From assembly GCA_963820625.1 (NCBI GenBank), contig CAWGAV010000005.1, positions 64,083 to 128,082 of the forward strand: DNA of 64,000 bases, written 5' to 3'. The translations under genes were made by a program, and so were the position numbers. The notes beneath the pieces were generated by a model that had not been told where the DNA came from, did no database searches, and saw only the letters and a program-made list of their open reading frames with translations. The DNA comes from an uncultured delta proteobacterium (lineage in GTDB: Bacteria > Desulfobacterota > BSN033 > UBA1163). Below, one piece after another: positions 14,954 to 35,646 of this stretch. Positions within the stretch are counted from its first letter, which is position 1. Each line of letters begins with the position of its first letter.

Positions 14954-14995
14954 AACCTTCGGTTGCTAGAGGTTGGAGGCTCAAATAATTTTTAC

Positions 14996-19015: not shown

Positions 19016-19096
19016 AATCTTAAAGTACTGTTATAAATTAAATTTTCATCATTCGTGCCTGCAGACTTGCGTGGGTGATCAACTAATCATTTAAAA

Positions 19097-19378
19097 TTTA
19101 TTAAGAACGCGTCTGAAAACCCCGTCCTGTGCCTGCCTGCCGGTAGGCAGGGACGGGGATGAAATATGTGTCTGCCAAAGGCAGAAAAGCCTTAATCAGA
19201 TGCTAAAACAAGCCTGATCTCCATCAGGCCAAGGTTAAGCATGACAACAGGGTTTTCCTCTTGTGTCTTGTCATCCCGAACCAGGTCCTGAACTTGTTTC
19301 AGGATCTAACGATTTCGGGATCTTGGTTTAGAGAATTTGGGTTTTAAAGCCCCGCCCTGTGGGCGGGGTTCTTTACTT
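19097..19378 (+). repeat. composite hairpin repeat, copy B (about 280 bp)
   Basis: Colinear with copy A apart from module indels. It is the reverse complement of the copies at 21986 and 35355. Confidence 0.85.
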
Positions 19379-21985: not shown

Positions 21986-22277
21986 AGTAAATTACCCCGC
22001 CCACAGGGCGGGGCTTTAAAACCTAAATTCTCTAAACCCAAAACCGAGATCCCGAAATCCTTAGATCCTGAATTAAGTTCAGGACCTGGTTCGGGATGAC
22101 AAAAGAAGAAGGCCAATCCCCTGTTGTCATGCTTAACCTTGTGCTGAACTTGATTCAGTATCGTTTCAGCATCTGATCAGGTTTTTTCTGCCTTTAGCAG
22201 ACACACCTTTCATCCCCGTCCCTGCCTACCGGCAGGCAGGCACAGGACGGGGTTTTCAGGTGCGATTTCTAATAAAA
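21986..22277 (-). repeat. composite hairpin repeat, copy C (292 bp), at the left boundary of the accessory island
   Basis: Same length as copy D (35355-35646) and differs from it at only 6 positions by eye. Same orientation as D. Confidence 0.9.
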
Positions 22278-22381: not shown

Positions 22382-23197
22382 TTAACCGTTGAGATCCCCT
22401 TTCAGAAACGCCACAATGCGCTCGAATGCTCGAGGGTCCTGAATGAAAAACAAATGGCCCCCTTCAAACAGCTCCAGGCGTGCTCCCGGAATCTGTTTCT
22501 GCATTGCTTCGAGATTGGCGGACGTGGCAATGCCGTCATACCGACCCCCGCAAATGTAGGCCGGCATCCGGAGGTTAGGGAGCCGCTCGTACGTATCGTG
22601 GCGTGCGCGGGCTTCCAACTGCCGCCTGGCACCGATTTGGCGCCCCGGTTCGTCTGCTCCCACTCGCAGCTTCCCCAGGGTCTGTTCAAACAAAAGCTGG
22701 AATTGGGCAGGGTTGGCGGCCTGCCATACGGCGTCCAGGCGCGTGTCACTGAGGAAGAGCATTCGGCGAGCATAGTCCTCCACCGAAAGCAGGGCGAGCT
22801 CATGTAATGGATATGAGGCCCCGCCCGCACCACCACTACTTGTGCAGGCTAAGACCAAGCGTTCCACCCGGTTCGGATAGCGCAGGGTGAACTCTTGTGC
22901 CACCATCCCTCCGAACGAAATGCCCATGACCAAACAACGATCCCACCCCACTGCGTCGAGCAACGCATTGGCATCTTCGGCATAGTCGACCATGGTATAG
23001 GGGATATCCGGCCGCGAGGTTTGGCCGAGACCGCGTTGATCATAGGCGAGAATCTTAAAGTGTTGGGCAATGGCCATCTCGAAAATACTGGGTGAGCGGC
23101 GTAAATCACCCCCTGTACCACTGATGACGAGCAAGCGTGGGCCTGTGCCCCGGATCTCGTAATACATCTTGAGGTCACGAACGTTAATGAATGGCAT
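22382..23197 (-). CDS. alpha/beta-fold hydrolase (3-oxoadipate enol-lactonase-like)
   Basis: 271 aa. Nucleophile elbow GISFGGMVAQ, with an N-terminus typical of this family (YYEIRGTGPRLLVISGTGGD). Confidence 0.85.
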   Translation of the reverse strand: MPFINVRDLKMYYEIRGTGPRLLVISGTGGDLRRSPSIFEMAIAQHFKILAYDQRGLGQTSRPDIPYTMVDYAEDANALLDAVGWDRCLVMGISFGGMVAQEFTLRYPNRVERLVLACTSSGGAGGASYPLHELALLSVEDYARRMLFLSDTRLDAVWQAANPAQFQLLFEQTLGKLRVGADEPGRQIGARRQLEARARHDTYERLPNLRMPAYICGGRYDGIATSANLEAMQKQIPGARLELFEGGHLFFIQDPRAFERIVAFLKGDLNG

Positions 23198-23356
23198 GGC
23201 TCACTTTTTTCTATGGGGATTTATCATCTACCGAGTCTGTACAAAAAGCCCTATTGGGGCCATTTCCCGACTGATAAGTATTTGATTTTATTGATACCAA
23301 ATTTATGAAAATGACTTTTCCTACAGACTCAACACCAGACATTACCGGCGGGAAAC

Positions 23357-23417
23357 GCCAAACATAAATCATCACTCTACCGGACTGTTGTGAGTCCGGT
23401 GCATACGGATGTTGGGC
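23357..23417 (-). other. attC-like site 1 (follows mazF)
   Basis: On the minus strand: R'' GCCCAAC, then the stem ACCGGACT/AGTCCGGT, then R' GTTTGGC. Starts 2 nt after the mazF stop codon. Confidence 0.55.
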
Positions 23418-23419
23418 TT

Positions 23420-23755
23420 TCAATAGATGCACGCATCAAGTATGGACAGAACTTCTTCAAGCACGCTATCTGAAGCCCTGCCGATCCGCTTGGCCTTACG
23501 TGCACGGAAATCAATCGATTTGACTTGCTCAACCAGGACGAATCCGGTGACCTTTGGGTCGTTCACAACGGCCACATGGAAGGGGAAACCCCGCTCTGTG
23601 TTGGTGAGGGGGCAGACGATAGCGAGACCTGTATGTCTGTTGAAAAGGGTGTTGCTCACAACCAGGGCAGGCCGGCGGCCTCTCTGCTCATGGCCGGACT
23701 GCGGGTCGAAAGTGACGGCAACGAAATCGCCTTTTTGGGGAACATAGGTTGTCAT
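23420..23755 (-). CDS. mazF: type II toxin, MazF/PemK family endoribonuclease
   Basis: 111 aa. YVPQKGDFVAVTFDPQSGHEQRGRRPALVVS...CPLT... is typical of PemK/MazF. Abuts the antitoxin gene. Confidence 0.9.
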   Translation of the reverse strand: MTTYVPQKGDFVAVTFDPQSGHEQRGRRPALVVSNTLFNRHTGLAIVCPLTNTERGFPFHVAVVNDPKVTGFVLVEQVKSIDFRARKAKRIGRASDSVLEEVLSILDACIY

Positions 23756-24010
23756 TTACCAGTCCTCTCTGCCAACAGGTTCTCCCCATTCAACTTCCCT
23801 GGTCTTGTAATTCTTTGGAATACGGGACACTAATTCTTGCAGGCTCTGTTTGCCCCGTACGCGCCTCACGGGAGCAATGACAATCACACCGTCTCGTGTG
23901 GACACATCGACGGGATCACCAACCGAAATGCGAGCTTCCTCAAGAACCTGCTTAGCAAGACGGAGTCCCTGACTGTTACCCCATTTCTGAACTTTAGTAA
24001 CCATGTTCAT
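23756..24010 (-). CDS. mazE: type II antitoxin, MazE/AbrB (SpoVT-AbrB) family
   Basis: MNMVTKVQKWGNSQGLRLAKQVLEEA... The start is the ATG at 24010 or 24004, after GGAGG. The ORF-track start at 24064 lies upstream of the promoter. Confidence 0.85.
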   Translation of the reverse strand: MNMVTKVQKWGNSQGLRLAKQVLEEARISVGDPVDVSTRDGVIVIAPVRRVRGKQSLQELVSRIPKNYKTREVEWGEPVGREDW

Positions 24011-24029
24011 ACCTCCATGAGTTATACCA

Positions 24030-24058
24030 AGTATAGCCCCAGGCCTATGTCCTGTCAA
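24030..24058 (-). promoter_or_regulatory. sigma70-type promoter internal to the mazEF cassette
   Basis: On the minus strand: TTGACA (24058-24053), a 17-nt spacer, then TATACT (24035-24030), about 20 nt upstream of the mazE start. Confidence 0.55.
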
Positions 24059-24069
24059 GTCCATCCGAG

Positions 24070-24124
24070 GCCCAACGTTAAAAGCTCAGCGGTGGCTGTA
24101 AGCCATCCGCTGGATTTGTTAGGT
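24070..24124 (-). other. attC-like site 2
   Basis: On the minus strand: R'' ACCTAAC and R' GTTGGGC, both fitting RYYYAAC/GTTRRRY. Core is CAGCGG-TGGCTgtaAGCCA-T-CCGCTGGA. Confidence 0.65.
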
Positions 24125-24178
24125 TTCCTTGTACATCAATAGTCAAGTCTGCGCCTCTTTATCAGTCACCCTTTGGTT

Positions 24179-24760
24179 TCATTTCCCTTTTGGATAAATA
24201 CATAGGACATAAAAAGGTTCGTAGCTACTGGAACGATGAAAATCTTTGAATACATCATAAGGAATTTCCATCCTCATACCCGGACCAGGATCATTAATGA
24301 TAAAGATTTTCTTCAAATCATCATATCCCGAAACAACAACATAATGACCCTCTCCAGCATACCTTCCACTACTGTACCAATTTGAAGGAATCACTCCCAA
24401 TACAATTAAAGGATACCCTTGAGCGAGCAAAAATTTCACCTCTTCCTTTTTCGAATCATAGAAAGAATAGACTTCAAAACCTTGCATCCTTACATAGGAT
24501 TCCATACCGGAGATAGGGGTTACTCTGCCGCTTCTTGCCCTTCCTACTTCTTCTTGGGATAAATTTTTTCCATAAAAATTCAATACCATCCGTAGGGAAG
24601 TAGGACCACAATCCATATAGGGTTGGCGATATATTGGAACATTCTCAATGAGATGTTGCTGGGGTAGATTCGATTTTGTAATTTGGGGGTTTTTGACCGG
24701 CGGCCCCCCTGCACATCCTAAAACCAAAACGATAACCGAAAATAAAATGAACTTTTTCAT
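24179..24760 (-). CDS. lipoprotein with a C39-like (papain-fold) peptidase domain
   Basis: Lipobox MKKFILFSVIVLVLGC. Candidate catalytic residues in ...YMDCGPTSLRMVL... and ...GHYVVVSGYDD... The start is set at the ATG at 24760, after GGGGGGA. Confidence 0.7.
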   Translation of the reverse strand: MKKFILFSVIVLVLGCAGGPPVKNPQITKSNLPQQHLIENVPIYRQPYMDCGPTSLRMVLNFYGKNLSQEEVGRARSGRVTPISGMESYVRMQGFEVYSFYDSKKEEVKFLLAQGYPLIVLGVIPSNWYSSGRYAGEGHYVVVSGYDDLKKIFIINDPGPGMRMEIPYDVFKDFHRSSSYEPFYVLCIYPKGK

Positions 24761-24793
24761 AACCATCCCCCCTATATCCGTAAATTTAGAATG

Positions 24794-24849
24794 GCCTAAC
24801 GTGGCGCTCACCGGCCGGCGGAAGCGAGGCCGGAGCCGGTCCGTTGTGC
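24794..24849 (-). other. attC-like site 3
   Basis: On the minus strand: R'' GCACAAC and R' GTTAGGC. Stem ACCGGCCGGC / GCCGGAGCCGGT with bulges. The upstream ORF reads into it. Confidence 0.5.
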
Positions 24850-25425
24850 AGCGCATGGTTCGGGCTCCGGCCCCGACTCCATTGGCAACGATTCGATCAG
24901 TACATGCCTTACCTTCTGAGCAGCTTTTTCGGCTCCCAAACCAGCAATGGCCACGGCCACGTTGGCGCGCCGATAAGAGGGTCGGAAATAGCTGATGTCC
25001 GCTTTGATCTCCCTCAGGTACAGTTGCTTCTCCCTTTCAGATAGCTTCTTCTCTATGGGCCTAGAATCGATGTCGTAGAAAGTGATCCTGTTCAGAATGT
25101 TTTCCGGAGAATCTTCGAGCGCCACCGTGGTGGCATTCGCCTTTTTCACTATGCGCCAGTAGGCGTCCAAGAGGCCGCTGGGCGGCAAGGCGATAACGCA
25201 GTTCCGACTGTCCTCTCGCGACAAGACTTGCTTCAATGCTTTGGAAGCCTCTTTGCGATATGAGTACGAGGTCAGGAAGCGCTTCTGGAGCCGCTCAATG
25301 GACGTTCCAAAATAGCTCTCTATTTCCGCGTCCAAATCAAAGAACGGACAGCCAAGCAGAGCCACCAGTTTCTCTCCGACCTTCGTTTTACCGACACAAC
25401 AGACCCTTGTTATGAAGACCCTCAT
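24808..25425 (-). CDS. shikimate-kinase-like P-loop NTPase with a degenerate Walker A
   Basis: MRVFITRVCCVGKTKVGEKLVALLGCPFFDLDAEIE... aligns by eye with AroK N-termini (GxxGxGKS/T-VG...FxDxDxxIE). RBS GAGGAG. Confidence 0.6.
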   Translation of the reverse strand: MRVFITRVCCVGKTKVGEKLVALLGCPFFDLDAEIESYFGTSIERLQKRFLTSYSYRKEASKALKQVLSREDSRNCVIALPPSGLLDAYWRIVKKANATTVALEDSPENILNRITFYDIDSRPIEKKLSEREKQLYLREIKADISYFRPSYRRANVAVAIAGLGAEKAAQKVRHVLIESLPMESGPEPEPCAAQRTGSGLASAGR

Positions 25426-25455
25426 TGGATGCACTCCTCTCGGATTTGTTCCTGG

Positions 25456-25513
25456 CCCGAACGGTCAAAATCAGCGGGGCGTGTAACGCATCCGCTGGAT
25501 TGTTTTGTTATAT
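25456..25513 (-). other. attC-like site 4
   Basis: On the minus strand: R'' ATATAAC, containing the TAA stop of the upstream ORF, and R' GTTCGGG. Core is AAATCAGCGG..CCGCTG[G]ATT with a bulged G. Confidence 0.55.
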
Positions 25514-26245
25514 GCATATTCCGGATGTTATATCAGGCTTCTTTTTCAGCACTTTTAACCCATATGGACAGACTGCTGAGCAAATTCCGCAGTTGTGCCC
25601 CTTGTGGTACTGAAAGTAATGTTCTTTTTTCCACTGATCGCATGCCTGTACATCCAGAATTTCTTCACGGGGTGTTCCTGGATACCATGAGTTGCCTTTC
25701 AATGCCTTTGCAGGACAAGCATCGATGCACCGCGTACAACGACCGCAAAAATTACGCTCTATTGGTGGCCCACAGGGAAGTTCCCTGTCGGTAAAAACGG
25801 TTCCCAAACGAACCCACGACCCAAACTTCCGGGTAATAAGCTGGCAGTGGCGGCCTATCCAACCTAAACCTGCTCGGGTAGCCGCAGTTTTGTGAGGAAA
25901 GTCACCTTTGATATTAACTGTATCGGTACGCTCAGAAGCCGCGAGCGGTTTAGCGCGATATCCTCTGCTTCTGATTTCGGCTGCTAACGCTCCTGATAAT
26001 TCATTGATGAGGGCATTCACCCTAGCGTACTCATCGGCATACGCTTGGTTAGGGCCGTTCTGGATGCTGACCATAATGTGAGGATTCATGGGAATAGCCC
26101 ATGAAAGGGCGAAAGGAAAACTATGTCCTGTTTCATCCTGGGGCGTGGAAAAATCCCGAAGGTCTGCCGCACCCCAGAGAACAATCTTTTGTGCTTCTAT
26201 CCAACCAGTCAACCAGCAAGGGAAAGTGGTTGAGGGAACAGGCAA
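25508..26245 (-). CDS. 4Fe-4S double-cluster protein, short epoxyqueuosine-reductase (QueG)-like
   Basis: CGRCTRCIDACP and CGICSAVCPYG ferredoxin-type motifs. 245 aa. TTG start 6-7 nt after GGAGG. Confidence 0.65.
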   Translation of the reverse strand: MPVPSTTFPCWLTGWIEAQKIVLWGAADLRDFSTPQDETGHSFPFALSWAIPMNPHIMVSIQNGPNQAYADEYARVNALINELSGALAAEIRSRGYRAKPLAASERTDTVNIKGDFPHKTAATRAGLGWIGRHCQLITRKFGSWVRLGTVFTDRELPCGPPIERNFCGRCTRCIDACPAKALKGNSWYPGTPREEILDVQACDQWKKEHYFQYHKGHNCGICSAVCPYGLKVLKKKPDITSGICI

Positions 26246-26263
26246 TTCATACCTCCATATCTC

Positions 26264-26323
26264 ATATAACGGCCAGGGTCAGCCGCGCGGCTTGTCCGCG
26301 TCGCCTGCACCCTCTGGTTCGAC
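26264..26323 (-). other. attC-like site 5
   Basis: On the minus strand: R'' GTCGAAC and R' GTTATAT. Stems CCAGGGT/ACCCTCTGG and GCGCGG/CCGCG. Confidence 0.5.
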
Positions 26324-26330
26324 GATCCTT

Positions 26331-27002
26331 TCAGTCCATTGGAATGATGTCAGCGTAAGCAAACCCATTCCGATTCACAATATCGCCGACTCTGGCCAGG
26401 ATGGTTTTCCGAAACATCGGCCCCCCCACGACGACCGTGTGGATTTCCCCGTTCTCTCCACACGGGTCGCAATCCTTGGGGAACTCCGCAATCAAGTCCC
26501 TTGACCATTTTCGCCCAGCAAAACGCGAAGGCAGTTTCTTGAGATCTACACTGCTGACATAGGCTTCGAGTCCTGCTGACAGCATTTGCTCCGCCAGCTC
26601 GCCCGTGGGAATTTCCCACAACGGAAAAAGAGGATCAATTCCGGTTCCTTTCAATTGATTCTCCCGATACTTTCGGATGTCCTCAAGGAACAGATCTCCG
26701 AATGCCAGGCACTCAATCCTCTTGCTGGCAGACTCGGTGACAAAGTGTCGCATGATGGCATCGTATTGCTCGTTTGTGCATGGGTCGGGTAGACTGATCG
26801 TTTCGATCGGCAGGCCTACTGCCTCGGCTTGACGTTGAAGCATCTCCAACCGGGTGCCGTGCATCGACACACGACTGTATTTCTGATTCATTGCGGTAAA
26901 CAGGCCGAGAAGCTCAACCCTCGGGTCTTGTTGGAGCAGGTGAACCGCCCATGCGCTGTCCTTACCGCTACTCCAGCTCAATAGGGTCTTTTTCTGCATC
27001 AT
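26331..27002 (-). CDS. PP-loop ATP pyrophosphatase of the Dph6/MJ0570 (diphthine-ammonia-ligase-like) family
   Basis: MMQKKTLLSWSSGKDSAWAV (PP-loop SxGKDS) and ...CGENGEIHT... The start at the ATG at 27002 lies 12 nt after the preceding R'. Confidence 0.75.
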   Translation of the reverse strand: MMQKKTLLSWSSGKDSAWAVHLLQQDPRVELLGLFTAMNQKYSRVSMHGTRLEMLQRQAEAVGLPIETISLPDPCTNEQYDAIMRHFVTESASKRIECLAFGDLFLEDIRKYRENQLKGTGIDPLFPLWEIPTGELAEQMLSAGLEAYVSSVDLKKLPSRFAGRKWSRDLIAEFPKDCDPCGENGEIHTVVVGGPMFRKTILARVGDIVNRNGFAYADIIPMD

Positions 27003-27009
27003 ACCTTCT

Positions 27010-27067
27010 CTCGAACGAATTAAATCAGCGGTGGCTGTAAGCCATCCGCTGGAGTGATTTGTTGTGC
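27010..27067 (-). other. attC-like site 6
   Basis: On the minus strand: R'' GCACAAC and R' GTTCGAG. The core CAGCGGTGGCTGTAAGCCATCCGCTGGA is identical to that of site 2. Confidence 0.6.
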
Positions 27068-27072
27068 GCGCT

Positions 27073-27435
27073 CTATATTTCTTCAAATTCCTTTAATGTC
27101 TTTTCAGTTATTACATCACCTGTATGTTTTATTTTCGATGATTCCAAAACCATCATCCACGTTTCCTCATCAGCGAATGGCCTATGCTTTTTGCCTTTTG
27201 GAATGACCACTAATTCTCCTGGATTTATTTCAATGATTCCTTCTTCTAATTCAATTCTGAATTTACCTTTTATTATATAAAACAATTCATCTTCATCTTT
27301 ATGGTCATGCCAAACCAATTCACCCTTTACTTTAACAATTTTCACATCATAGTTATCCACCCGACTAATTACTTTCGGGCTCCATAATTCATCAAACTTT
27401 CCAAACTTATCCTCGAGGTTTAATACTTTTATCAT
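27073..27435 (-). CDS. cupin domain protein
   Basis: 120 aa. Contains ...WHDHKDEDELFYIIKGKF..., ...GELVVIPKGKKHRP..., a two-motif cupin pattern. Confidence 0.8.
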   Translation of the reverse strand: MIKVLNLEDKFGKFDELWSPKVISRVDNYDVKIVKVKGELVWHDHKDEDELFYIIKGKFRIELEEGIIEINPGELVVIPKGKKHRPFADEETWMMVLESSKIKHTGDVITEKTLKEFEEI

Positions 27436-27457
27436 ATTTTTCCTTTCATCTTATCGC

Positions 27458-27529
27458 GTACAACGATTGTGTTCACCAGCGGCCAAAACGCACAGTGTTT
27501 TGGCCGTTTGGTGGAGCGCCTTGTTAGGC
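27458..27529 (-). other. attC-like site 7 (long, 72 bp)
   Basis: On the minus strand: R'' GCCTAAC, embedding the TAA stop of the upstream ORF, and R' GTTGTAC. Stem CACCAGCGGCCAAAAC / GTTTTGGCCGTTTGGTG. Confidence 0.6.
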
Positions 27530-28069
27530 TCTCATATTCTTCATATATTTCAATTTCCGCCAACTGATTTGTTGTTGAGTAAGAGGCATTTCTCTGTGCA
27601 CTCGGAAAAAAAGCTTTTGTAATGACATGTCTTTCCGAATGTCACCAATATATTTCTTGAAGGCCGTATGAACGTCTGCGAAGAGAACGAATGGATTAAC
27701 GATAATTAGATTAGTTTTAGGATCCTTTTTAAGATGGACGTTTCTCGCCCAAAGTTCATTTTTACAAAGTATAGCATAGTGACTCTCCATATTGAACCCG
27801 TGCACGAGACCACACCGAATGAATCCGTAAAATTCATTAGGTGAATATGAAGCTGGGAAATAGTTGCGGAGAAAGCTTATATATTTCTGTTTGTTCATTT
27901 TGCCATCAGGCATCCCGGAGCAGTATTTCGCGAGGAGATCGATTGCACAGCAAAGGAGGATTGTAGCCGGGACCCCTTGGTAATCGGTTAGGAGTAGACG
28001 AACACTACGATAGAGATAGAACTGAAATCGGAATGAAAATCTATCGATAGCATTTCCCATTTTATTCAA
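27524..28069 (-). CDS. hypothetical protein (cassette ORF, about 180 aa)
   Basis: Uninterrupted ORF filling the interval between two attC-like sites. The start is the TTG at 28069 or the ATG at 28060. No family recognised. Confidence 0.5.
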   Translation of the reverse strand: MNKMGNAIDRFSFRFQFYLYRSVRLLLTDYQGVPATILLCCAIDLLAKYCSGMPDGKMNKQKYISFLRNYFPASYSPNEFYGFIRCGLVHGFNMESHYAILCKNELWARNVHLKKDPKTNLIIVNPFVLFADVHTAFKKYIGDIRKDMSLQKLFFRVHREMPLTQQQISWRKLKYMKNMRA

Positions 28070-28070
28070 A

Positions 28071-28140
28071 GCTTAACATCATGCATCAGCATCATGGAAC
28101 CTGCCGCGGATTCCGAGTAGGCTGAATCCGATAGTTCGGA
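28071..28140 (-). other. attC-like site 8
   Basis: On the minus strand: R'' TCCGAAC and R' GTTAAGC. Stem CGGATTC/GAATCCG. Confidence 0.5.
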
Positions 28141-28145
28141 TTATC

Positions 28146-28664
28146 CTATCTTGGACATTGTCTCCAAAGCTCTCGTTTGAGCTCTTCATACACGTTGAAG
28201 ACGATTGGGCAGACGGAGCAATTCGAGAAGGCTTGATTCACCCTGAAGACAAAATCCCTCTTGTGCAAATGCGGATAAGAACGGCAGTCGCCAGGCCGAT
28301 CATCGTAGACCGTGCAGAAATTATTCTGCAAAAAAGGACATGGCTGGTTTCTGAAGACGGACCCTTCCCCTTCGGGAGCATCTGCAAGAAATTGGGAATG
28401 GAACTCATCAACACTCAACCCAAGATGATTGGTAAGCCGCCTGATATCCGTCGGCTTCAGAACAGGATTAACTTTCTTACAGCAATTGGCGCATTTGGTA
28501 CAGTCGATTTCCATAGATACTTCGCGATAGAAATTATGGACTGTAGAGTCAATGCTCCGACTGGAGAGATTAGATCTCTTGAGATAACAGCGGAATGCCC
28601 AATTGGCCTCCTCGCGTTGTTTCGCGAGTTGTTCAATTCTCTTAATATCCGTTTCGAATCTCAT
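28146..28664 (-). CDS. YkgJ-family (CxxCxxCC) zinc/iron-chelating cysteine-cluster protein
   Basis: CTKCANCCKK... and ...CPFLQNNFCTVYDDRPGDCRSYP match the UPF0153/YkgJ pattern. 172 aa. Confidence 0.7.
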   Translation of the reverse strand: MRFETDIKRIEQLAKQREEANWAFRCYLKRSNLSSRSIDSTVHNFYREVSMEIDCTKCANCCKKVNPVLKPTDIRRLTNHLGLSVDEFHSQFLADAPEGEGSVFRNQPCPFLQNNFCTVYDDRPGDCRSYPHLHKRDFVFRVNQAFSNCSVCPIVFNVYEELKRELWRQCPR

Positions 28665-28674
28665 ATACCTTAGA

Positions 28675-28732
28675 GTCTAACATCAGAAATCAGCGGCGGC
28701 TATCAGCCATCCGCTGGAGTGTCTTGTTCGGT
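28675..28732 (-). other. attC-like site 9
   Basis: On the minus strand: R'' ACCGAAC and R' GTTAGAC. Core is CAGCGGCGGCTATCAGCCATCCGCTGGA. Confidence 0.6.
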
Positions 28733-28735
28733 GAC

Positions 28736-29668
28736 TTATCTATTCCAAAGTTGCTCAATCAACAGCACTTCTCTGGGCCTCAGTTCCCGAATGGTGCTTT
28801 TTGAAATGCTGGTGATACCCAGCCTCTTTGCTTCTTTTCTGAATTTGGCCCAAGTGTGGTATTTACAGTCATCCGGCTCCGCAACGTAGAACCTTGTCCA
28901 ATGATGCACGTCTTGCCGGAGGACAATAGGACATGGTTCAAAGACTGAGACCCGCTTTCCAGAAAGAGATTCCCATATCTGGATTATAATATCTCCCTCA
29001 CGAGCATGACTTCGAAACTTTGACTTGCCCGTCCATCGAATCCACGACACGTCGGTTGACTTATCTGAGACGATTTGTCTGGCCTTATTCTCCGCCTTTT
29101 GGACAAAAGGCTGTTCCTTAGGGTACTTGTTTTCTTCCAGTTGCTTGACTGAGACAATCCAAACTTTGTTGACGAATTTGGTTGTCGGTGGAGGTTTGCG
29201 TCGCCTGCGTCTTGGTCGAGCATTTACTTTTATCTTCGATATCCGGGTTAAGAAGCCCCGGTCGATCCGTCGAGAGATCTCGCGCAGCCCATAAAGAAAA
29301 GCTGTGGCTTGCGCAACCAGTTGCTTTCTGTCCGTGAGAATGGCCAATTCGGTTAGTTCTTCTGCGGATGAAATAGATAGGTTGCATGATCCGACAAGTG
29401 CCGTCTTGCCGAAAAGCACGACCTTTGCGTGAAGGTCAGACATCGAGTATAAATCCACACCTTTCCGCATCAGAGATCGCAATACTTTGGCGGAGGTTTC
29501 TGCCAATTTGATCGCCCGATCCGAGGCGTCGCATATGAGGACATCACCTTTTCGGAAATTGAGGCGTGCCGTGCTCGATACGTACGCCACGGCTGCGAAA
29601 CGTCGAGGAGCTTTGTTGACATTAGAGGCAATCTGCTTCCAGATGTTCCCTGTAAGGATTGTATCCAT
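28736..29668 (-). CDS. PLD-family (single HKD) nuclease-like protein with an uncharacterised C-terminal domain
   Basis: ...DLHAKVVLFGKTALVGSCNLS... carries the HxK...GSxN signature. A basic linker ARPRRRRRKPPP follows, then about 170 aa of unknown domain. The start is the ATG at 29668. Confidence 0.65.
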   Translation of the reverse strand: MDTILTGNIWKQIASNVNKAPRRFAAVAYVSSTARLNFRKGDVLICDASDRAIKLAETSAKVLRSLMRKGVDLYSMSDLHAKVVLFGKTALVGSCNLSISSAEELTELAILTDRKQLVAQATAFLYGLREISRRIDRGFLTRISKIKVNARPRRRRRKPPPTTKFVNKVWIVSVKQLEENKYPKEQPFVQKAENKARQIVSDKSTDVSWIRWTGKSKFRSHAREGDIIIQIWESLSGKRVSVFEPCPIVLRQDVHHWTRFYVAEPDDCKYHTWAKFRKEAKRLGITSISKSTIRELRPREVLLIEQLWNR

Positions 29669-29677
29669 TCTTTTCTC

Positions 29678-29729
29678 ACCGAACTGTCCGAAATCAGCGG
29701 CGACGTTTATGCTGCTCGCTGGAGAATCT
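29678..29729 (-). other. attC-like site 10, apparently truncated on its R'' side by the RAYT unit
   Basis: On the minus strand: ...CCAGCGAGCAGCataaacGTCGCCGCTG... then R' GTTCGGT. No ..AAC box. The 27-bp inverted repeat starts at 29730. Confidence 0.4.
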
Positions 29730-29756
29730 GGGGTCAAATCTTTATTCTTGACTTTG
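29730..29756. repeat. left arm of the 27-bp inverted repeat (contains the hairpin GTCAA-N10-TTGAC)
   Basis: Read directly from the sequence. Overlaps the last codons and stop of the transposase gene. Confidence 0.9.
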
Positions 29757-30743
29757 CTGCAATTGTTTCTTCATCCTCTCAATTCTTGCCGCCAGTTTCT
29801 GGTCTTTGTCCAGCAGTGCCCAAAGCCTCTTCCTCATTACACTCACCGCGCTATAATCAATACCCATCAATTCTCCAATCTCCCTCTGGTTCATTCCCCC
29901 ATAACGATACAGCATCTCCATCAAAACTCCTCGTGCAACACCTTTGTATCCCTTTTTCAACAACTCCCCCCTTTTCACCCCAAACACATCTCCAATTAAC
30001 CGTATGATCCGCTGCGGTTCCACCTGGGCCAGAATCTTCTTAACCGCCGGAAGTTCTCTCAACTCAACAGCAGACCGGATATATTGTCCTCTAATCTTTT
30101 CTATAAATTCATTTGCCCCCACAATCCCATGCCCTGTCCCTCTCTCCAGAGGATTCTCTATCTTCCCCGACAACCCTTCCATCACAAAATCCTCATACTT
30201 CTTTCTCCCCTTTGCCGTATCCCCTCCAAAATAAGCCAAAACCTCCTTCACTTGAAGAAAGCCCCTCTTCCCAAGCTGCAAAATATACCCACCATAACTG
30301 CTCCAACGATAATTCCTCAGATACTTCCTTTTCTCATCCAGCGTCATTCCGGACCTAATCCTCACTCTCATGGGATTCAGGTGAATATACCTGGAAATCT
30401 CCCGCAGATAATTATCCGCATCCACCAGGAACGACTTGTAACGTCCCTGGTAAAGATGCCCTGTCCGATCGTGCTTCCAATTATGATACGAGGTATAGGA
30501 AATGTTGAAATGCCGCATAAATTCCTGCAAGTTCGCCAATGGTGTTTTGACCAGTAGATGAAAGTGATTTGACATCAACACATAAGCCAGAATCTCTGTC
30601 TGATAGATGTCACCGGATCGCTCCAGAAGATCAACAAAAGCTGACCGATCGGAATCATTTAAAAAGATTTCTTGGCGTGCATTACCTCGGCAGGTTACGT
30701 GATAGTAGGCATTTTCAAATTGGATTCGGAGTGGCCGTGCCAT
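29742..30743 (-). CDS. IS200/IS605-like Y1 (HUH) transposase, REP-associated tyrosine transposase (RAYT)-like, with a C-terminal DnaA-C-like HTH
   Basis: MARPLRIQFENAYYHVTCRGN..., HUH motif SNHFHLLV, then GHLYQGRYKSFLV...RYIHLNPMR with the catalytic Tyr region. C-terminal ...MNQREIGELMGIDYSAVS... The start is the ATG at 30743. Confidence 0.85.
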   Translation of the reverse strand: MARPLRIQFENAYYHVTCRGNARQEIFLNDSDRSAFVDLLERSGDIYQTEILAYVLMSNHFHLLVKTPLANLQEFMRHFNISYTSYHNWKHDRTGHLYQGRYKSFLVDADNYLREISRYIHLNPMRVRIRSGMTLDEKRKYLRNYRWSSYGGYILQLGKRGFLQVKEVLAYFGGDTAKGRKKYEDFVMEGLSGKIENPLERGTGHGIVGANEFIEKIRGQYIRSAVELRELPAVKKILAQVEPQRIIRLIGDVFGVKRGELLKKGYKGVARGVLMEMLYRYGGMNQREIGELMGIDYSAVSVMRKRLWALLDKDQKLAARIERMKKQLQQSQE

Positions 30744-30771
30744 TAACAGGATTTCTACCAAATTCCAAAGC

Positions 30772-30798
30772 CAAAGTCAAGAATAAAGATTTGACCCC
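30772..30798. repeat. right arm of the 27-bp inverted repeat
   Basis: CAAAGTCAAGAATAAAGATTTGACCCC, 29 nt upstream of the transposase ATG. Confidence 0.9.
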
Positions 30799-30827
30799 AA
30801 ATCGTCATTACAAGGTTTGATATAGAT

Positions 30828-31136
30828 TTGCCCCTTGAGTATCAGGTCACAAATTCTCCGTATGTCCGAGGAGCACTGGTTGTCAATGCCAGTGAATCAG
30901 GCCTTCTTGTCCATTCCATCAAAGACATGCCTATCGGTACGAAATTAAATATTGCGGTGATGTTCCCTGCAGGATTCGAGTTGGCCAATTTTGAAGTATT
31001 TGCCGAGATTGTTTGGAAAGATATCCATTGGGGGGAAAATCGGGAAGGGTACCAATTTGGATTAAAATTCGTCCGCATATTGGAGGAAGACCATCGGAAA
31101 CTGAAGCAACTTCTCGATGAACAGCATGAAACATAA
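30828..31136 (+). pseudogene. PilZ-domain protein, probably 5'-truncated
   Basis: Carries the (D/N)xSxxG motif NASESG and the C-terminal PilZ barrel. The RxxxR motif is absent, there is no ATG (TTG only), and the frame opens inside the inverted-repeat arm at 30795. Confidence 0.55.
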
Positions 31137-31199: not shown

Positions 31200-33060
31200 A
31201 CAGACAGTGTCAGATTAACTCTTGACTAATGAGTAAACCTACTACTGTTTATTCTAACTTTTCTTCTACAGTTGCGTTGGAGTAGTGTTTTGTAAGTTCC
31301 TGTAAACACTGATATTGTTCTTTGAAGAAATGGAAAATGGATGAAAATGTGGTGCCACAGAATATACTGAATACGCTTGACATATGCCTTCATATTGAAT
31401 ATTATTGGGGTGTCCTTAAATGGAGGCCCCATGTTTGCAAGAATCAAGAAATCGGGTCAACATCAGTACCTTCAAATCGTGGAGAATCACCGAGAGGGTC
31501 CAAAGACTATCCAGCGTGTGATCGCAACGATTGGCCGAATGGATCATCTGGAGGCCAAAGGGGATATTGAAAATATCATTCGATCTCTCTCACGGTTTTC
31601 AGAAAAGGTACTTTTGATTTTGTCCGGTAAGAGTGAGGTCCATGCGGCTGCGAAAAAGATTGGTCCCTCGTTGATCTTCGAGAGACTCTGGAAAGAGCTG
31701 GGGATCGGGAAGATCATCCAAGGGCTTCTGGGTGGCAGGAGATTTGAGTTTGATGTGGAGAGAGCTATTTTTCTGACCGTTCTTCATCGGCTCTTTGCAT
31801 CGGGTTCGGACCGTTCCTGTGACAAGTGGCACCAGGATTATCAGATTGATGGAGTGGAGCCTTTGTCCTTGCATCACCTTTATCGGGCCATGGCCTTTCT
31901 GGGAGAGGAGATCGAAGACCAGAGGGAGAGGACTCCCTTTGCTCCCCGATGTACGAAAGATGTGATGGAAGAGGCGATGTTTCATGAACGGCGGGATCTG
32001 TTTACGGGTCTTGACTTGGTCTTCTTCGATACCACCTCGATCTACTTCGAGGGAGAAGGGGGAGCGAGCTTAGGTGAAAAAGGGCACAGCAAGGATCATC
32101 GTTCGGATTTAAACCAGATGGTGGTGGGTGCGGTTTTGGATGAGGATGGCAAGCCCATCTGCTGTGAGATGTGGCCGGGCAACACGGCAGACGTCAAGAC
32201 CTTGATTCCGGTGATTGATCGGATCAGGAATCGTTTCCATATAGGCCGGTTCTGCGTGGTGGCGGATCGTGGGATGATCAGTGATGAAACGATGAAGGAA
32301 CTGGATCAGAGGAAGATTTCCTATATCCTGGGTGCACGGATGAGGAGGGTCAAGGAGATCCGGGAAGAGGTTCTGTCTCGGGCGGGACGATATACGGAAG
32401 TCCATCCGGAGGGGCCCTCTTCGAAAGATCCGGCCCCACTCAAGGTCAAGGAAGTCTGGGTGGATGAGCATCGCTATATCGTATGTTTGAATGTGAAGCA
32501 GGCGCGCAAGGAGGTGTTGGATCGGCAGGTCATTGTCGAAGCCTTGCAGGAGCAGCTTAAAAAGAACCCCAAGGCTCTGATTGGTAACAAGGGCTATCGG
32601 AAGTATCTGAAGCTGGATCGAGATCATCTTCGTCTCGATCAAGAGAAGATCGATGGGGAGGAGAGGTTCGATGGGAAATGGGTTTTAAAGACCAATACCT
32701 CTTTGTCTCCGGAAGAGACGGCCCTCAAATACAAGGAACTCTGGCAAGTGGAGCAGGTTTTCAGAGAGGTCAAGTCCGTTCTGGAAACACGTCCCATCTT
32801 CCATAAGTGTGACGAGACCATCCGAGGTCATGTATTCTGCAGCTTTCTTGCCCTTGTATTGAGGAAAGAACTGGATCGACGTCTTGATCAGGCGGGCCAC
32901 TGTTTTGAATGGGCAGACATCAAACAAGATTTGAAATCGCTTCAGAAAATCGTCATAGAAGAACAGGGCAAGTCATTGGCTGTCCGTAGTGAATGTAAAG
33001 GGATCTGCGGTAAGGTCTTTCAATCTGATACTATTTAAGGCCTCCCCCTAAAGATGGTAA
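31200..33060 (+). mobile_element. IS1634-family (IS4 superfamily) insertion sequence; ends not resolved
   Basis: Defined by its transposase gene. No convincing terminal inverted repeats could be identified by eye, so the boundaries are approximate. Confidence 0.45.
31431..33038 (+). CDS. IS1634-family DDE transposase
   Basis: MFARIKKSGQHQYLQIVENHREGPKTIQRVIATIGR... is a typical IS1634 N-terminus. DDE region ...VFFDTTSIYFEGE..., ...VVADRGMIS... RBS GGAGG before the ATG at 31431. Confidence 0.9.
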   Translation: MFARIKKSGQHQYLQIVENHREGPKTIQRVIATIGRMDHLEAKGDIENIIRSLSRFSEKVLLILSGKSEVHAAAKKIGPSLIFERLWKELGIGKIIQGLLGGRRFEFDVERAIFLTVLHRLFASGSDRSCDKWHQDYQIDGVEPLSLHHLYRAMAFLGEEIEDQRERTPFAPRCTKDVMEEAMFHERRDLFTGLDLVFFDTTSIYFEGEGGASLGEKGHSKDHRSDLNQMVVGAVLDEDGKPICCEMWPGNTADVKTLIPVIDRIRNRFHIGRFCVVADRGMISDETMKELDQRKISYILGARMRRVKEIREEVLSRAGRYTEVHPEGPSSKDPAPLKVKEVWVDEHRYIVCLNVKQARKEVLDRQVIVEALQEQLKKNPKALIGNKGYRKYLKLDRDHLRLDQEKIDGEERFDGKWVLKTNTSLSPEETALKYKELWQVEQVFREVKSVLETRPIFHKCDETIRGHVFCSFLALVLRKELDRRLDQAGHCFEWADIKQDLKSLQKIVIEEQGKSLAVRSECKGICGKVFQSDTI

Positions 33061-33106
33061 TGTAGGTTTGCAACAAAACCATATCCCATCAAAAGGAGGA
33101 AGCCAT

Positions 33107-34150
33107 ATGAAATTTTACACCCAGCAACACAAATTTTATTGTGGAATCGACCTTCATACCAAAAAAATGTTCGTCTGCATCCTGGATGCCGGGGGCAACA
33201 TCCGGATTCACCAAAACATCAATACGGACCCGGAGACCTTTCTGAACATCATCACTCCGTTCCGGGAGGACATCGTGGTTGCCGTGGAGTGCATGTTCAC
33301 CTGGTACTGGATCGCTGATCTGTGCGTTGAACACCATATCCCGTTCGTCCTAGGTCATGCCCTCTACATGAAAGCTATTCACGGAGGAAAGGCCAAAAAC
33401 GACAAGATCGACTCCCATAAGATCGCCACTTTGCTCCGGGGAGGAATGCTCCCTCAAGCCTATGTCTATCCGGCCAGGATGCGCGCAACCCGAGATCTCC
33501 TCAGACGGAGAAATCACTTAATGAGAAAACGGGCTGAGCTCTTTGCTCATATCCAGAATACCCGAAGCCAGTATAACCTTCCCGATCCCCTGGGATGCAT
33601 TGCCAAACCCAAAAACCGTGAAGGCATCGCCCAACGCTTCGATGACCCTTCCGTCCAAAAGAGCATGGCTGTGGACTTGGAGATGATTGAAGCCTATGAC
33701 CATATCTTGACCCAGCTCGAACGTGATATCATTGCCTGTGCTAAAGAACACGATCTGCGATCCTATGCCCTGCTTCAAACCATTCCTGGGGTAGGCAGAA
33801 TCCTCGCCCTGGTCCTCCTCTACGAAATCGAATCCATCGAGCGCTTCCCCCAGGTCCAGGATTTCGTCTCCTACTGCCGTCTGATAAAGAGCATCAAAGA
33901 ATCAAACGGCAAAAAGTACGGATCAAGCGGTAAAAAGATCGGTAACGCTCATCTCAAGTGGGCCTTCTCCGAGGCAGCGGTCCTTTTCCTCAAGGGCAAC
34001 GAGCCTGGAAAAAAGTACCTCCAAAGGCTTGCCCATAAGCACGGCAAAGCCAAGGCCCTCTCTATCCTTGCCCACAAGCTGGGACGGGCCGTCTATTTCA
34101 TGCTCAAAAACAAGGAGGCTTTTAACCAAAAAAAGTTCCTCGGTCTCTAA
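33107..34150 (+). CDS. IS110-family (DEDD) transposase/recombinase
   Basis: MKFYTQQHKFYCGIDLHTKKMFVCILD...VAVECMFTWYW...KNDKIDSHKIA... with C-terminal ...IPGVGRILALVLLYEI... RBS AAGGAGG. Confidence 0.9.
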   Translation: MKFYTQQHKFYCGIDLHTKKMFVCILDAGGNIRIHQNINTDPETFLNIITPFREDIVVAVECMFTWYWIADLCVEHHIPFVLGHALYMKAIHGGKAKNDKIDSHKIATLLRGGMLPQAYVYPARMRATRDLLRRRNHLMRKRAELFAHIQNTRSQYNLPDPLGCIAKPKNREGIAQRFDDPSVQKSMAVDLEMIEAYDHILTQLERDIIACAKEHDLRSYALLQTIPGVGRILALVLLYEIESIERFPQVQDFVSYCRLIKSIKESNGKKYGSSGKKIGNAHLKWAFSEAAVLFLKGNEPGKKYLQRLAHKHGKAKALSILAHKLGRAVYFMLKNKEAFNQKKFLGL

Positions 34151-34420
34151 ACTCCGGAGGGGATGGATCAGCCTGCCGCCTAACTGGAACCTCTCAGGGC
34201 AGGAGCATGCACCTGCATCCATCAGGGTCAAGAAAACCCATGCATCTCAGAATGCCAAATCGATGGTATGCCAATATTGCCCGGTAGCCCATGATTTGAT
34301 TGGCGGTCCATCCCGCTCCTCATACTTTTATCAGCGTGCCATGTTGTCAGGTTCTGCCCCTCACCCGAACCTGAAACTAACTGGGGAGCATTTTCTGCAT
34401 ACCCTGACGTGTTGAATAGG
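34151..34420 (+). ncRNA. candidate IS110/IS1111-type guide (bridge/seek) RNA region in the 3' non-coding end of the IS
   Basis: 270 nt with no plausible ORF. Long-range complementarity GGAGGGGATGGA (about 34156) with TCCATCCCGCTCC (about 34310). The call rests on position only. Confidence 0.25.
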
Positions 34421-34423
34421 ACG

Positions 34424-35218
34424 CTACGAGGGCACAGTATAGTTTCTAGGTCGCAGAGGGAATCTCTTCTCTCTGCAGTTCCGTCTCAGACGGGATTGAA
34501 CCTCAATAAGTGTTTGGTGCAGGACCTGCTCTTGCACCCGTGCTGAAATCAAGCTGGAACGACTGCCAACAGGTTCCCACGGCACGAAGCCCCTGTCGTG
34601 CGGATTGGGGTGTATGTACTGTGCGTCTGCCAGGTCCGCAAGCAAAGTAGGTTCAACTGGGACATGAGCAAACGGATTGTGATAGCAATCGAGCCCCATC
34701 GCATCAGCCCGCACCCGCTTCAATACGCCAACGACGCTCAGGGAGCGAAACGTATCTTTTGTGACCTTCCTTTGACCAAGGTACCCTTGCCCAACTACGG
34801 CGATCGTCTGATCGGGCTGCAGTCCGAGTACGATGCCGAATGACCCGAACATCGCTTTTGCGACGGTAAATGTATCTATCCAATTCCAGTGCCCGGAATT
34901 GTTGTACACAACGATCATCGTAGGCCACATGCCTTCAGATGAACGCTTGACTTGTGGGTAAGCTTCTTCAAGTAGCCCTTGTACGCGATCAGATGGCGCT
35001 ACTGCACCCGGAGATTGCGCGGTACCCCAGACTTTGGCCAGTTTCTTGTCCTCGTCGTTCGGATCTAGTTGTTTGACTTCTGTGATCAAACTGAGCGAGC
35101 CCAAAGACACCCGGTAGTCAGCAGTCTTCTCGGTACTCTCTGGTATCCGAGCGCATTCAATGCCTCGTGCCGAGCAGAGTTTCTCGAAGAGTTTTTCTGA
35201 GATGGTGCGGGTGCTCAC
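34424..35218 (-). CDS. hypothetical protein (264 aa)
   Basis: GTG start with AGAGG 8 nt upstream. No family recognised. The C-terminal 40 codons run through hairpin-rich sequence and may not be genuine. Confidence 0.45.
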   Translation of the reverse strand: MSTRTISEKLFEKLCSARGIECARIPESTEKTADYRVSLGSLSLITEVKQLDPNDEDKKLAKVWGTAQSPGAVAPSDRVQGLLEEAYPQVKRSSEGMWPTMIVVYNNSGHWNWIDTFTVAKAMFGSFGIVLGLQPDQTIAVVGQGYLGQRKVTKDTFRSLSVVGVLKRVRADAMGLDCYHNPFAHVPVEPTLLADLADAQYIHPNPHDRGFVPWEPVGSRSSLISARVQEQVLHQTLIEVQSRLRRNCREKRFPLRPRNYTVPS

Positions 35219-35354
35219 CGTATGCCTCTTGAAACATAACGATTAATCTATCAAATTACCGCTTGTGGTAAAAAATAGCAGAACTGTTTAAAAAAAACAA
35301 TGAAAATTTCTTGAAAATAATAAATTTAGTTGACTTGGTTTCGCTTTTATGAAA

Positions 35355-35646
35355 AGTAAATTACCCCGCCCACAGGGCGGGGCTTTAAAACCTAAATTCT
35401 CTAAACCCAAAACCGAGATCCCGAAATCCTTAGATCCTGAACTTAATTCAGGACCTGGTTCGGGATGACAAAAGAAGAAGGCCAATCCCCTGTTGTCATG
35501 CTGAACCTTGTGCTGAACTTGATTCAGTATCATTTCAGCATCTGATCAGGTTTTCTCTGCCTTTAGCAGACACACCTTTCATCCCCGTCCCTGCCTACCG
35601 GCAGGCAGGCACAGGACGGGGTTTTCAGGTGCGATTTCTAATAAAA
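35355..35646 (-). repeat. composite hairpin repeat, copy D (292 bp), at the right boundary of the accessory island
   Basis: 6 mismatches against copy C over 292 nt by eye. Same orientation as C. Confidence 0.9.

Follow-up and report, generated by a model that had tools for sequence, protein, structure and literature searches.

An integron gene-cassette array that has probably lost its integrase in the chromosome of an uncultured delta proteobacterium

A 64,000-nucleotide stretch of DNA from an uncultured delta proteobacterium (GenBank assembly GCA_963820625.1, contig CAWGAV010000005.1, positions 64,083 to 128,082; hereafter the window) contains a block of minus-strand genes at 22.4 to 29.7 kb. 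Our analysis leaves little doubt that this block is a genuine integron gene-cassette array, in which nine mobile cassettes are separated by attC recombination sites and from which the integrase gene, intI, has probably been lost. IntegronFinder has a name for such elements, CALIN, which stands for a cluster of attC sites lacking integron-integrase (Neron et al. 2022, PMC9024848; Cury et al. 2016, PMC4889954). It most probably originated when a sedentary chromosomal integron lost its intI and was then damaged by insertion sequences (IS) and a RAYT-like transposase unit. The block had been singled out in a description made from the sequence alone, which we call the original prediction.

Results

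Layout of the array

Every sizeable gene between 22.4 and 29.7 kb (n = 11) is on the minus strand. The list of open reading frames (ORFs) and Pfam bear out the predicted lack of any common function: the products are an alpha/beta hydrolase, MazF, MazE, a C39-like peptidase, a shikimate-kinase-like protein, a 4Fe-4S protein, a diphthamide-synthase-like protein, a cupin, an orphan, a CxxCxxCC protein, and a PLD-like (phospholipase D-like) protein. Our scan of ORFs and promoters found one co-oriented ORF per attC site, mostly promoterless, with the mazEF pair as the exception. The cassettes, from distal to proximal, are as follows.

23363-24075, minus strand: mazEF toxin-antitoxin cassette (Pfam PemK_toxin and MazE_antitoxin; own promoter at 24058-24030)
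24076-24799, minus strand: C39-like peptidase cassette (Pfam Peptidase_C39_2, E = 8.8e-17)
24800-25461, minus strand: shikimate-kinase-like (P-loop) cassette, its ORF running into its own attC (Pfam SKI, E = 4.9e-15)
25462-26269, minus strand: 4Fe-4S dicluster protein (Fer4) cassette (Pfam Fer4_16)
26270-27015, minus strand: diphthamide-synthase-like (ATP-pyrophosphatase) cassette (Pfam Diphthami_syn_2, E = 7e-27)
27016-27463, minus strand: cupin cassette (Pfam Cupin_2)
27464-28076, minus strand: orphan cassette with a 181-aa ORF, without family match
28077-28680, minus strand: CxxCxxCC (putative zinc or iron-chelating) cassette (Pfam CxxCxxCC, E = 8.7e-12)
28681-29683, minus strand: PLD-like (putative nuclease or phospholipase D fold) cassette (Pfam PLDc_2, E = 1.3e-9)

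For the 181-aa orphan, Pfam gave only a chance-level match (E = 0.079) and NCBIfam none. Likely start codons were assigned in two ORFs: the ATG at 24760 of the C39-like cassette, which would give a lipoprotein-like N-terminus, and the ATG at about 29667 of the PLD-like cassette. Base composition jumps from unit to unit as predicted, with cassette GC ranging from 0.35 to 0.55 around a flanking value of about 0.46. Promoter-like sites overall are depleted (4 observed versus 11.9 expected). The coding strand has a single strong sigma-70-like promoter, TTGACA-17-TATACT at 24058-24030 before mazE, which matches 11 of 12 consensus positions and is conserved in the comparison loci L035 and L111. The toxin-antitoxin pair with its own promoter is therefore as the original prediction described it.

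The attC sites

All ten palindromes of the original prediction were found on reading the sequence, at the coordinates and with the outer 7-mers (the R'' and R' boxes) that it gave for them. Those recognized by the covariance models described below lie on one strand, 0.45 to 0.8 kb apart, well within the CALIN definition, which asks for a minimum of two attC sites separated by less than 4 kb. Because an Rfam scan of the window at gathering thresholds matched no family to these sites, we built independent covariance models. The first (R1) describes the bottom strands of 10 class 1 attC sites from 10 plasmid integrons, those of aac(6')-29a, blaVIM-2, arr-3, aacA4, aadB, aadA2, dfrA5, estX, a HAD cassette, and cmlA1, and contains the R-box and L-box pairs only. 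The second (R2) was made from 67 attC sites that R1 had matched in external environmental genomes, window sites being excluded. For the R1 search, the filters were switched off and both strands of the whole 64 kb were scanned.

The seven best matches of R1 in the window (13 to 23.5 bits, from a model of 10 sites) are all inside the array and all on the plus strand, five of them at exactly the predicted coordinates. R2 gave eight matches of 20 to 50 bits (E = 4e-10 to 0.01, rough values since calibration was brief), again all in the array and all on the plus strand, and none better than E = 0.8 elsewhere in the 64 kb. An attC model had been proposed as the check on the prediction, and both models match the array and only the array, their significant matches being confined to 23.3-28.7 kb. 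Eight of the ten sites stand as complete attC sites by the models and one more as a 5'-truncated remnant, while that at 28071-28140 is not canonical.

23357-23417 (models to 23327), minus strand: attC of the mazEF cassette, most distal (R1 19.3 and R2 20.2 bits for 23327-23417)
24070-24124, minus strand: attC of the C39 cassette, CAGCGG family (R2 34.7 bits, E = 2.5e-6)
24794-24864, minus strand: attC of the shikimate-kinase-like cassette (R1 match 24794-24865; R2 24794-24864, 25.6 bits)
25456-25513, minus strand: attC of the Fer4 cassette, CAGCGG family, with a stop codon in R'' (R2 48.8 bits, E = 7.8e-10)
26264-26323, minus strand: attC of the diphthamide-synthase-like cassette (R1 16.8, R2 36.2 bits)
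27010-27067, minus strand: attC of the cupin cassette, CAGCGG family (R1 22.0, R2 46.4 bits; extrahelical G in the bulge column)
27458-27529, minus strand: attC of the orphan cassette, with a stop codon in R'' (R1 23.5 bits, the best in the window; R2 39.4 bits; fold z = -4.3)
28071-28140, minus strand: atypical or decayed attC of the CxxCxxCC cassette (bounds TCCGAAC and GTTAAGC; weak fold)
28675-28732, minus strand: attC of the PLD cassette, CAGCGG family (R1 23.1, R2 49.8 bits, E = 4e-10)
29678-29729, minus strand: 5'-truncated attC with L'', L' and R' present and R'' missing (CTCCAGCG...CGCCGCTGATTT common to the family; R2 partial match 29694-29723)

The models also moved one boundary. 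In the 24.8 kb site, the original R'' (GCACAAC at 24849) was misplaced; the models put R'' at CCCGAAC, 24864-24858, which makes the site 71 nt long and complements GTTCGGG, the upstream R', at every base. The models give the last site as 23327-23417, and homologous cassettes in L035 and L111 back the 61-nt version, 23357-23417. Stop codons do fall within R'' at 25510-25508 and 27526-27524, the two places where they had been noticed. The site at 28071-28140 folds as two small hairpins (z = -1.75) and is an atypical or decayed attC, and that at 29678-29729 is what is left of a genuine CAGCGG-family attC after the loss of its R''. No further attC was found by R1 and R2 at 34150-34424 or downstream of the hydrolase gene.

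Several structural features accompany the model matches. The window has four occurrences of the motif TCCAGCGGATG-N11-CCGCTGA, all of them in the array (0.04 expected), and these account for the four sites with a common CAGCGG core in the original prediction; the core CAGCGG...CCGCTGGA is common to five of the ten sites, so that the attC family is partly homogeneous. The bracketed G of CCGCTG[G]A, predicted to be extrahelical on the plus strand, lands in the R1 column that represents the extrahelical G of class 1 sites. Folded as single-stranded DNA, as had been suggested, the plus strands of the six best sites give z-scores of -3 to -4.7. In the 67-site alignment, which was itself fitted to the model, 93.5% of cells form standard pairs, compared with 25-46% in slid controls, and 102 cells are changed on both sides, compared with 33 in shuffles.

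The junctions between cassettes carry a signature of their own. A crossover that splits R' between its G and TT when circular cassettes join would leave the six bases behind the G as part of the following cassette, and these should pair with the R'' of that cassette and not with that of the site in which they lie. With the originally predicted coordinates, R'' and the upstream R' are complementary at 26 of 36 variable positions (permutation P = 0.001), and with the model-derived R'' of the 24.8 kb site at 29 of 36 (P = 2.8e-5); R'' and the R' of the same site are complementary at only 11 of 36. The atypical site at 28071-28140 still has an R' that pairs with the next cassette's R'' at three of four positions, and the R' of the truncated site at 29678-29729, GTTCGGT, is the exact complement of the next R''.

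Cassette turnover and the chromosomal site

We compared the locus with metagenomic contigs (numbered with the prefix L), which often end inside arrays. The query was the 775-aa protein encoded upstream of the array, for which a metagenome scan returned 80 relatives with 65-98% identity that were then mapped for synteny; its best match in a genome is 63% identical and comes from a metagenome-assembled genome (MAG) labelled "Deltaproteobacteria." Two genes flank the locus.

22382-23197, minus strand: alpha/beta-hydrolase gene, conserved flank (Pfam Abhydrolase_1, E = 5.5e-25)
35706-36713, plus strand: radical-SAM gene, conserved proximal flank (Pfam Radical_SAM)

The radical-SAM gene is syntenic in L132, L133, L147, L157, and L167. 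In L132 and L133 the hydrolase gene adjoins it with no attC between them, which makes the hydrolase a core flank gene. The original prediction had counted this gene as the last cassette. That claim is refuted, since the gene is syntenic in relatives free of attC and in the window is itself followed by none. At 23261-23247 (minus strand), between the last attC and the hydrolase start codon, lies a hairpin that resembles a terminator and has a T-tract, which fits a separate transcription unit outside the array. The array thus occupies a fixed chromosomal site between the hydrolase and radical-SAM genes.

What fills that site varies among relatives. L167 and others have neither hydrolase nor array, and L157 has mazEF only. 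L147, L140, and L141 have mazEF and the Fer4 cassette without the C39 and shikimate-kinase-like cassettes, and in L147 and L140, where both of these are absent, Fer4 directly adjoins mazEF. In L129, whose flanking protein is 98% identical, mazEF is preceded by a different cassette, and L139 has eight other attC sites. mazEF is the oldest cassette of the array, and it has the distal position in L129, L140, L147, L151, and L157 as well. In L129 (8806-8890) and L151 (5585-5640), the attC upstream of mazEF reads ...CCGCT followed by TATCAGGCGC... and not CCGCTGGA, which suggests that both carry the same insertion or rearrangement inside the L'' box.

The edges of homology coincide with the outer triplets of the attC sites. 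Five genomes are identical up to GCCCAAC (plus strand) at the attC of the C39 cassette and then diverge at once; the arrays of L129, L147, L140, and L151 part at this same point. Over 458 nt, the DNA of the cupin cassette is 97.2% identical to L168 (12838-13295), where the 775-aa flanking protein is only 71% identical, and the similarity stops at AAC triplets on both ends. Similarly, the mazEF cassette recurs in L035 and L111 among unrelated neighbors, with homology running from the upstream attC/GTT to the cassette's own attC. The Fer4 cassette is 91% identical in DNA to L147 4862-5602, with a different downstream neighbor there, and a 64.5% identical CxxCxxCC homologue lies in an attC array of L077. 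Breakpoints at AAC/GTT indicate junction-precise turnover and horizontal transfer of cassettes. An invariant operon had been named as a possible outcome of such comparisons; instead, relatives carry different cassette sets at the same site, with breakpoints at AAC/GTT triplets.

The same attC family extends well beyond this locus. A scan of 185,579 genomes for the attC motif found at least 118 contigs. Among the matches listed, most are in Nitrospirota, Thermodesulfovibrionia, Syntrophaceae, and "delta proteobacteria" MAGs and some in archaeal MAGs; labels also include Thermodesulfobacteriota and Methanotrichaceae, among others. Some matches, for example those in actinomycete genomes, are probably due to chance. 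R1 finds co-oriented arrays in other genomes' loci, and model-supported attC sites occur in a subset of the motif contigs, including two with archaeal labels. Bins assigned to archaea contain the motif in L005, L012, L021, L031, L076, L100, L113, and L116 (Methanotrichaceae or Methanothrix, Methanocellaceae, Thermoplasmatales, and Halobacteriota), with R1 matches in L012 and L021; binning error is possible. Integron cassettes have been reported in Archaea (PMC9668308), and the motif in archaeal bins fits these.

Loss of the integrase

As originally predicted, the window contains no tyrosine-recombinase ORF. We searched all 64 kb by tblastn with IntI1 (100% identical to annotated IntI1 in plasmids), an environmental IntI from L033 that passes TIGR02249, an N-terminal IntI fragment from L046, and a generic tyrosine recombinase; the best E-value was 0.59, and Pfam detected no Phage_integrase domain in neighboring ORFs. 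With no trace of a tyrosine recombinase in the window, the array is read as a CALIN derived from a sedentary chromosomal integron.

Relatives preserve what this genome lacks. IntI-like genes or fragments lie within 8 kb of attC-motif loci in several genomes, and in L033 the same attC family occurs within 8 kb of a protein that passes the integron-integrase family NCBIfam TIGR02249 at 351.6 bits (cut-off 265). At the chromosomal site itself, L139 has, in order, the array, a 614-aa ORF, an opposite-strand 92-codon intI stub, and the conserved region upstream of the radical-SAM gene. The stub matches IntI1 residues 15-69 at 44% identity and is oriented away from the cassettes. Its position indicates an ancestral layout of hydrolase, cassettes, attI, intI, and radical-SAM gene. 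The original prediction had left open whether the array is a CALIN or has been separated from intI by the RAYT and IS insertions; the L139 stub favors loss of intI together with rearrangement of the proximal end.

A short segment may mark the former attI side.

35236-35318, minus strand: conserved junction segment, candidate attI-side end (92% identical to L147 6911-6992)

This 83-nt segment ends ...TAATC-GTTATGT on the top strand, the GTTATGT junction being at 35236-35242, and on its cassette side the window and L147 have different ORFs.

The broken proximal end

Between the truncated attC and the radical-SAM gene lie the following features; the 292-nt repeat is given with its left copy.

29730-30798, minus strand: RAYT-like Y1 (HUH) transposase gene with a C-terminal helix-turn-helix (Pfam Y1_Tnp, E = 7e-14)
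30799-31136, plus strand: PilZ-domain ORF, 5'-truncated, directly beside the RAYT unit's inverted repeat (Pfam PilZ from profile position 7 of 102)
31377-33038, plus strand: IS1634-family transposase (NCBIfam transpos_IS1634, 388 bits)
33023-34423, plus strand: IS110-family element, ends approximate, transposase ORF 33068-34150 (NCBIfam transpos_IS110, 199.7 bits)
34424-35218, minus strand: 264-aa orphan ORF (orf264), GC 0.53, adjoining the junction segment
35355-35646, no strand assigned: right copy of the 292-nt dispersed repeat, which L147 lacks at this position
21986-22277, no strand assigned: 292-nt dispersed repeat, left copy, outside the integron, 98% identical to 35355-35646

The RAYT-like gene scores 66.5 bits with NCBIfam REP_Tyr_transpos, below the cut-off of 80, and is flanked by perfect 23-bp inverted repeats, GGGGTCAAATC.... 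The unit abuts the truncated attC, and a simple insertion into that site was considered and rejected because its other flank is the truncated PilZ ORF and not the missing R'' half; a truncated PilZ opposite a truncated attC requires a rearrangement or deletion at the unit. The PilZ ORF lacks the N-terminal RRxxxR region, is cut exactly at the RAYT inverted repeat, and is a pseudogene fragment between mobile elements.

RAYT-like homologues, likewise with a C-terminal helix-turn-helix, were also seen inside attC arrays in L057, L095, L058, L077, L009, and L029, loci of different MAGs, and with the window copy all seven are oriented like the cassettes. The window copy (23 bp) and five of the six others (about 14-21 bp) have inverted repeats of their own, all but one starting GGGG(A/T)C; none was seen on reading the sequence at the L029 gene. 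We looked for inverted repeats shared among the homologues, and an exact k-mer search returned none, each unit having its own. The L057 unit stops about 40 nt short of a complete attC. Such repeat-flanked units may be array-targeting elements or cassette-borne genes. It is a tentative and rather doubtful idea that they are a third kind of element that specifically colonizes cassette arrays, maybe by way of the single-stranded attC hairpin, next to the two kinds known earlier, IS1111-attC elements and group IIC-attC introns (PMC11187229, PMC3001079).

The IS110-family element shares its ends (GATACTnnTTAAGGCC... and ...TTGAATAGGACG) with a 66% identical homologue in L062, which splits an attC of the same family at a point between R'' and the L''-side spacer. 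In the window, the left end of the element falls on the stop codon of the IS1634-family transposase ORF, and its other side is the end of orf264, an ORF that neither Pfam nor NCBIfam assigned to a family.

The 292-nt repeat is a mobile element, either MITE-like (miniature inverted-repeat transposable element) or a REP-cluster element (repetitive extragenic palindrome). It is hairpin-rich and intergenic and matched no Rfam family. Diverged copies at 14984-15234 and 19085-19378 bring the number in the window to four, and in L129 (7836-8027) an inverted partial copy sits inside the hydrolase gene, most of which it replaces. The two 98% identical copies bracket the whole block from hydrolase to orf264, and we considered them as att-like ends of an island (22.0-35.6 kb). 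This was rejected because of the four copies in the window and because both flanking copies are missing in L147, which bears an array; the left copy is absent at its position in L129 as well.

Discussion

Our results describe nine minus-strand cassettes, each a promoterless ORF (or the self-promoted mazEF) with an attC, for which the plus strand would be the recombinogenic bottom strand. When single-stranded, this strand is predicted to fold into an R-box/L-box hairpin with an extrahelical G on its 3' arm. From the features of the sites we infer that an integron integrase cleaved R' between its G and TT, and that circular cassettes were assembled and shuffled in this way; folding of the bottom strand and G/TT crossover are the presumed mechanism. 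The ancestral intI would have stood between the radical-SAM gene and the array's proximal end, with its transcription directed away from the cassettes. It appears to be gone from this genome, and the proximal end seems to have been broken by the RAYT-like unit and by the IS1634-family and IS110-family elements. Any later movement of cassettes would require IntI in trans. Since no integrase-side cassette promoter is in view, probably only mazEF is expressed within the array.

Some results weigh against this account. The site at 28071-28140 was recognized by neither R1 nor R2. The R1 scores of window sites are modest (9-23.5 bits), with E-values from a shortened calibration, and R2 and its alignment derive from R1 matches, which leaves some dependence between the two models, although both are independent of the window. 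At the proximal end of the array, neither an attI nor a cassette promoter was identified. The candidate attI junction at 35236-35242 is separated from the array by the IS elements and comes from a single comparison, with L147. Finally, orf264 is possibly the first (proximal) cassette, and its membership in the array is uncertain.

Could the palindromes be something other than recombination sites? A RAYT-like Y1 transposase gene adjoins the array and other hairpin-rich dispersed repeats occur in the window, as would be expected if they were REP repeats or bacterial interspersed mosaic elements (BIMEs) spread by the neighboring transposase. Yet the palindromes occur in the array only and in one orientation, and neither they nor their shared motif appear in the other 55 kb of the window, where the original prediction had pointed to genome-wide occurrence as a sign of REP behavior. 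Moreover, they match class 1 attC models down to the extrahelical G, and the inverted repeats of the RAYT unit (GGGGTCAAATC...) are unrelated to them. Repeats of this kind would yield neither the pairing of R'' with the upstream R' nor homology blocks that begin and end exactly with a cassette, and we regard this origin as extremely improbable. We give equally little weight to an ordinary co-directional cluster, or a defense or toxin-antitoxin island, whose hairpins are terminators or attenuators. A hairpin does follow every gene, and mazEF and a PLD-like protein are in the cluster. However, the hairpins lack T-tracts, and none of 12 terminator-like sites matches a full-length attC, the only overlap being two short partial hairpins within the attC at 28675-28732. 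Nor is the gene content kept as a block in relatives, where units move independently; GC jumps between 0.35 and 0.55 from one unit to the next, and terminators would not give the R''/upstream-R' pairing.

Accepting an integron array, one may still ask whether it lost its integrase or was merely parted from it. In a still-functional split integron, intI and attI would have been moved elsewhere by the IS/RAYT rearrangement and the integrase would act on these cassettes in trans. The proximal end is visibly rearranged (truncated attC, truncated PilZ ORF, two IS elements), and cassette content differs between L129 and L147, whose shared DNA is 95-98% identical, which implies recent integrase activity in the lineage; furthermore, half of CALINs are in replicons that encode IntI (Cury et al. 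2016, PMC4889954). On the other hand, neither the 34 kb right of the array nor the 22 kb left of it contains an integrase, intI of L139 decayed in place at this very locus and was not moved, and in L147 the junction segment adjoins the radical-SAM gene with no room for intI. We therefore consider a split integron unlikely, if worth keeping in mind, and a functional intI elsewhere in the genome would leave the element a CALIN at this locus. Insertion of the cassettes by an integrase at a secondary, non-attI site that never had its own intI is documented elsewhere (bioRxiv 10.1101/2022.09.11.507474) and would explain why no integrase remnant lies by the junction segment in L147 or the window. 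This seems highly improbable given the L139 stub in the canonical divergent position at the same locus and the arrays found here across relatives whose flanking protein is 67-98% identical, which argue for an old resident integron.

The loss of intI from a sedentary chromosomal integron also accords with what is known of related elements. Like other CALINs, this one has no fewer than two attC sites on the same strand with under 4 kb between them, no intI nearby, IS elements, and cassettes mostly without resistance or known function, and intI loss or rearrangement (mechanisms iii and iv in PMC4889954) is a plausible origin. It differs in that its origin can be traced, through the L139 intI stub and the attC-free sites and shorter arrays of relatives, whereas 95% of CALINs in the 2016 survey had no recognizable intI pseudogene nearby (PMC4889954). 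With sedentary chromosomal integrons such as the Vibrio superintegron and those of Xanthomonas (PMC12444791), it shares a fixed location in the lineage, a partly homogeneous attC family, a self-promoted toxin-antitoxin cassette among diverse cassettes mostly without known function, and integrase decay of the sort reported for Xanthomonas (PMC12444791). It is set apart from them by its small size (nine cassettes), by attC sites that are only partly homogeneous, by the absence of intI, and by a host that appears to be from an uncultured anaerobe-type lineage; the lack of an adjacent intI in the window likewise distinguishes it from a complete integron.

Class 1 attC sites (among them those of aadA2, aadB, blaVIM-2, aacA4, arr-3, dfrA5, estX, and cmlA1) resemble the window sites in R'' and R' with AAC and GTT, in an L box with an extrahelical G on the bottom-strand 3' arm, and in a variable central stem, and a model made from class 1 sites alone finds the window sites. 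The primary sequence of the L box is different, however, and the array has no resistance genes, intI1, or Tn402 context. The IS110-family element in the disrupted proximal part recalls IS1111-attC elements and group IIC-attC introns (PMC11187229, PMC3001079), as does its L062 homologue, which sits in an attC; the window copy differs in having the end of the IS1634-family transposase ORF, not an attC, next to its left end. Nothing here is different in kind from known elements, and how integrons are thought to work is unchanged.

In annotation, the region is best labelled an integron array, with its ORFs taken to be accessory genes acquired horizontally. One attC family is widely shared across MAGs of different labels. 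At a single chromosomal site, the relatives form a natural series, from no attC, to one cassette, to two or more, to an array with a decayed intI stub, and to the present array. This series supports a "loss of integrase" route to CALINs, elements whose origin is usually unclear.

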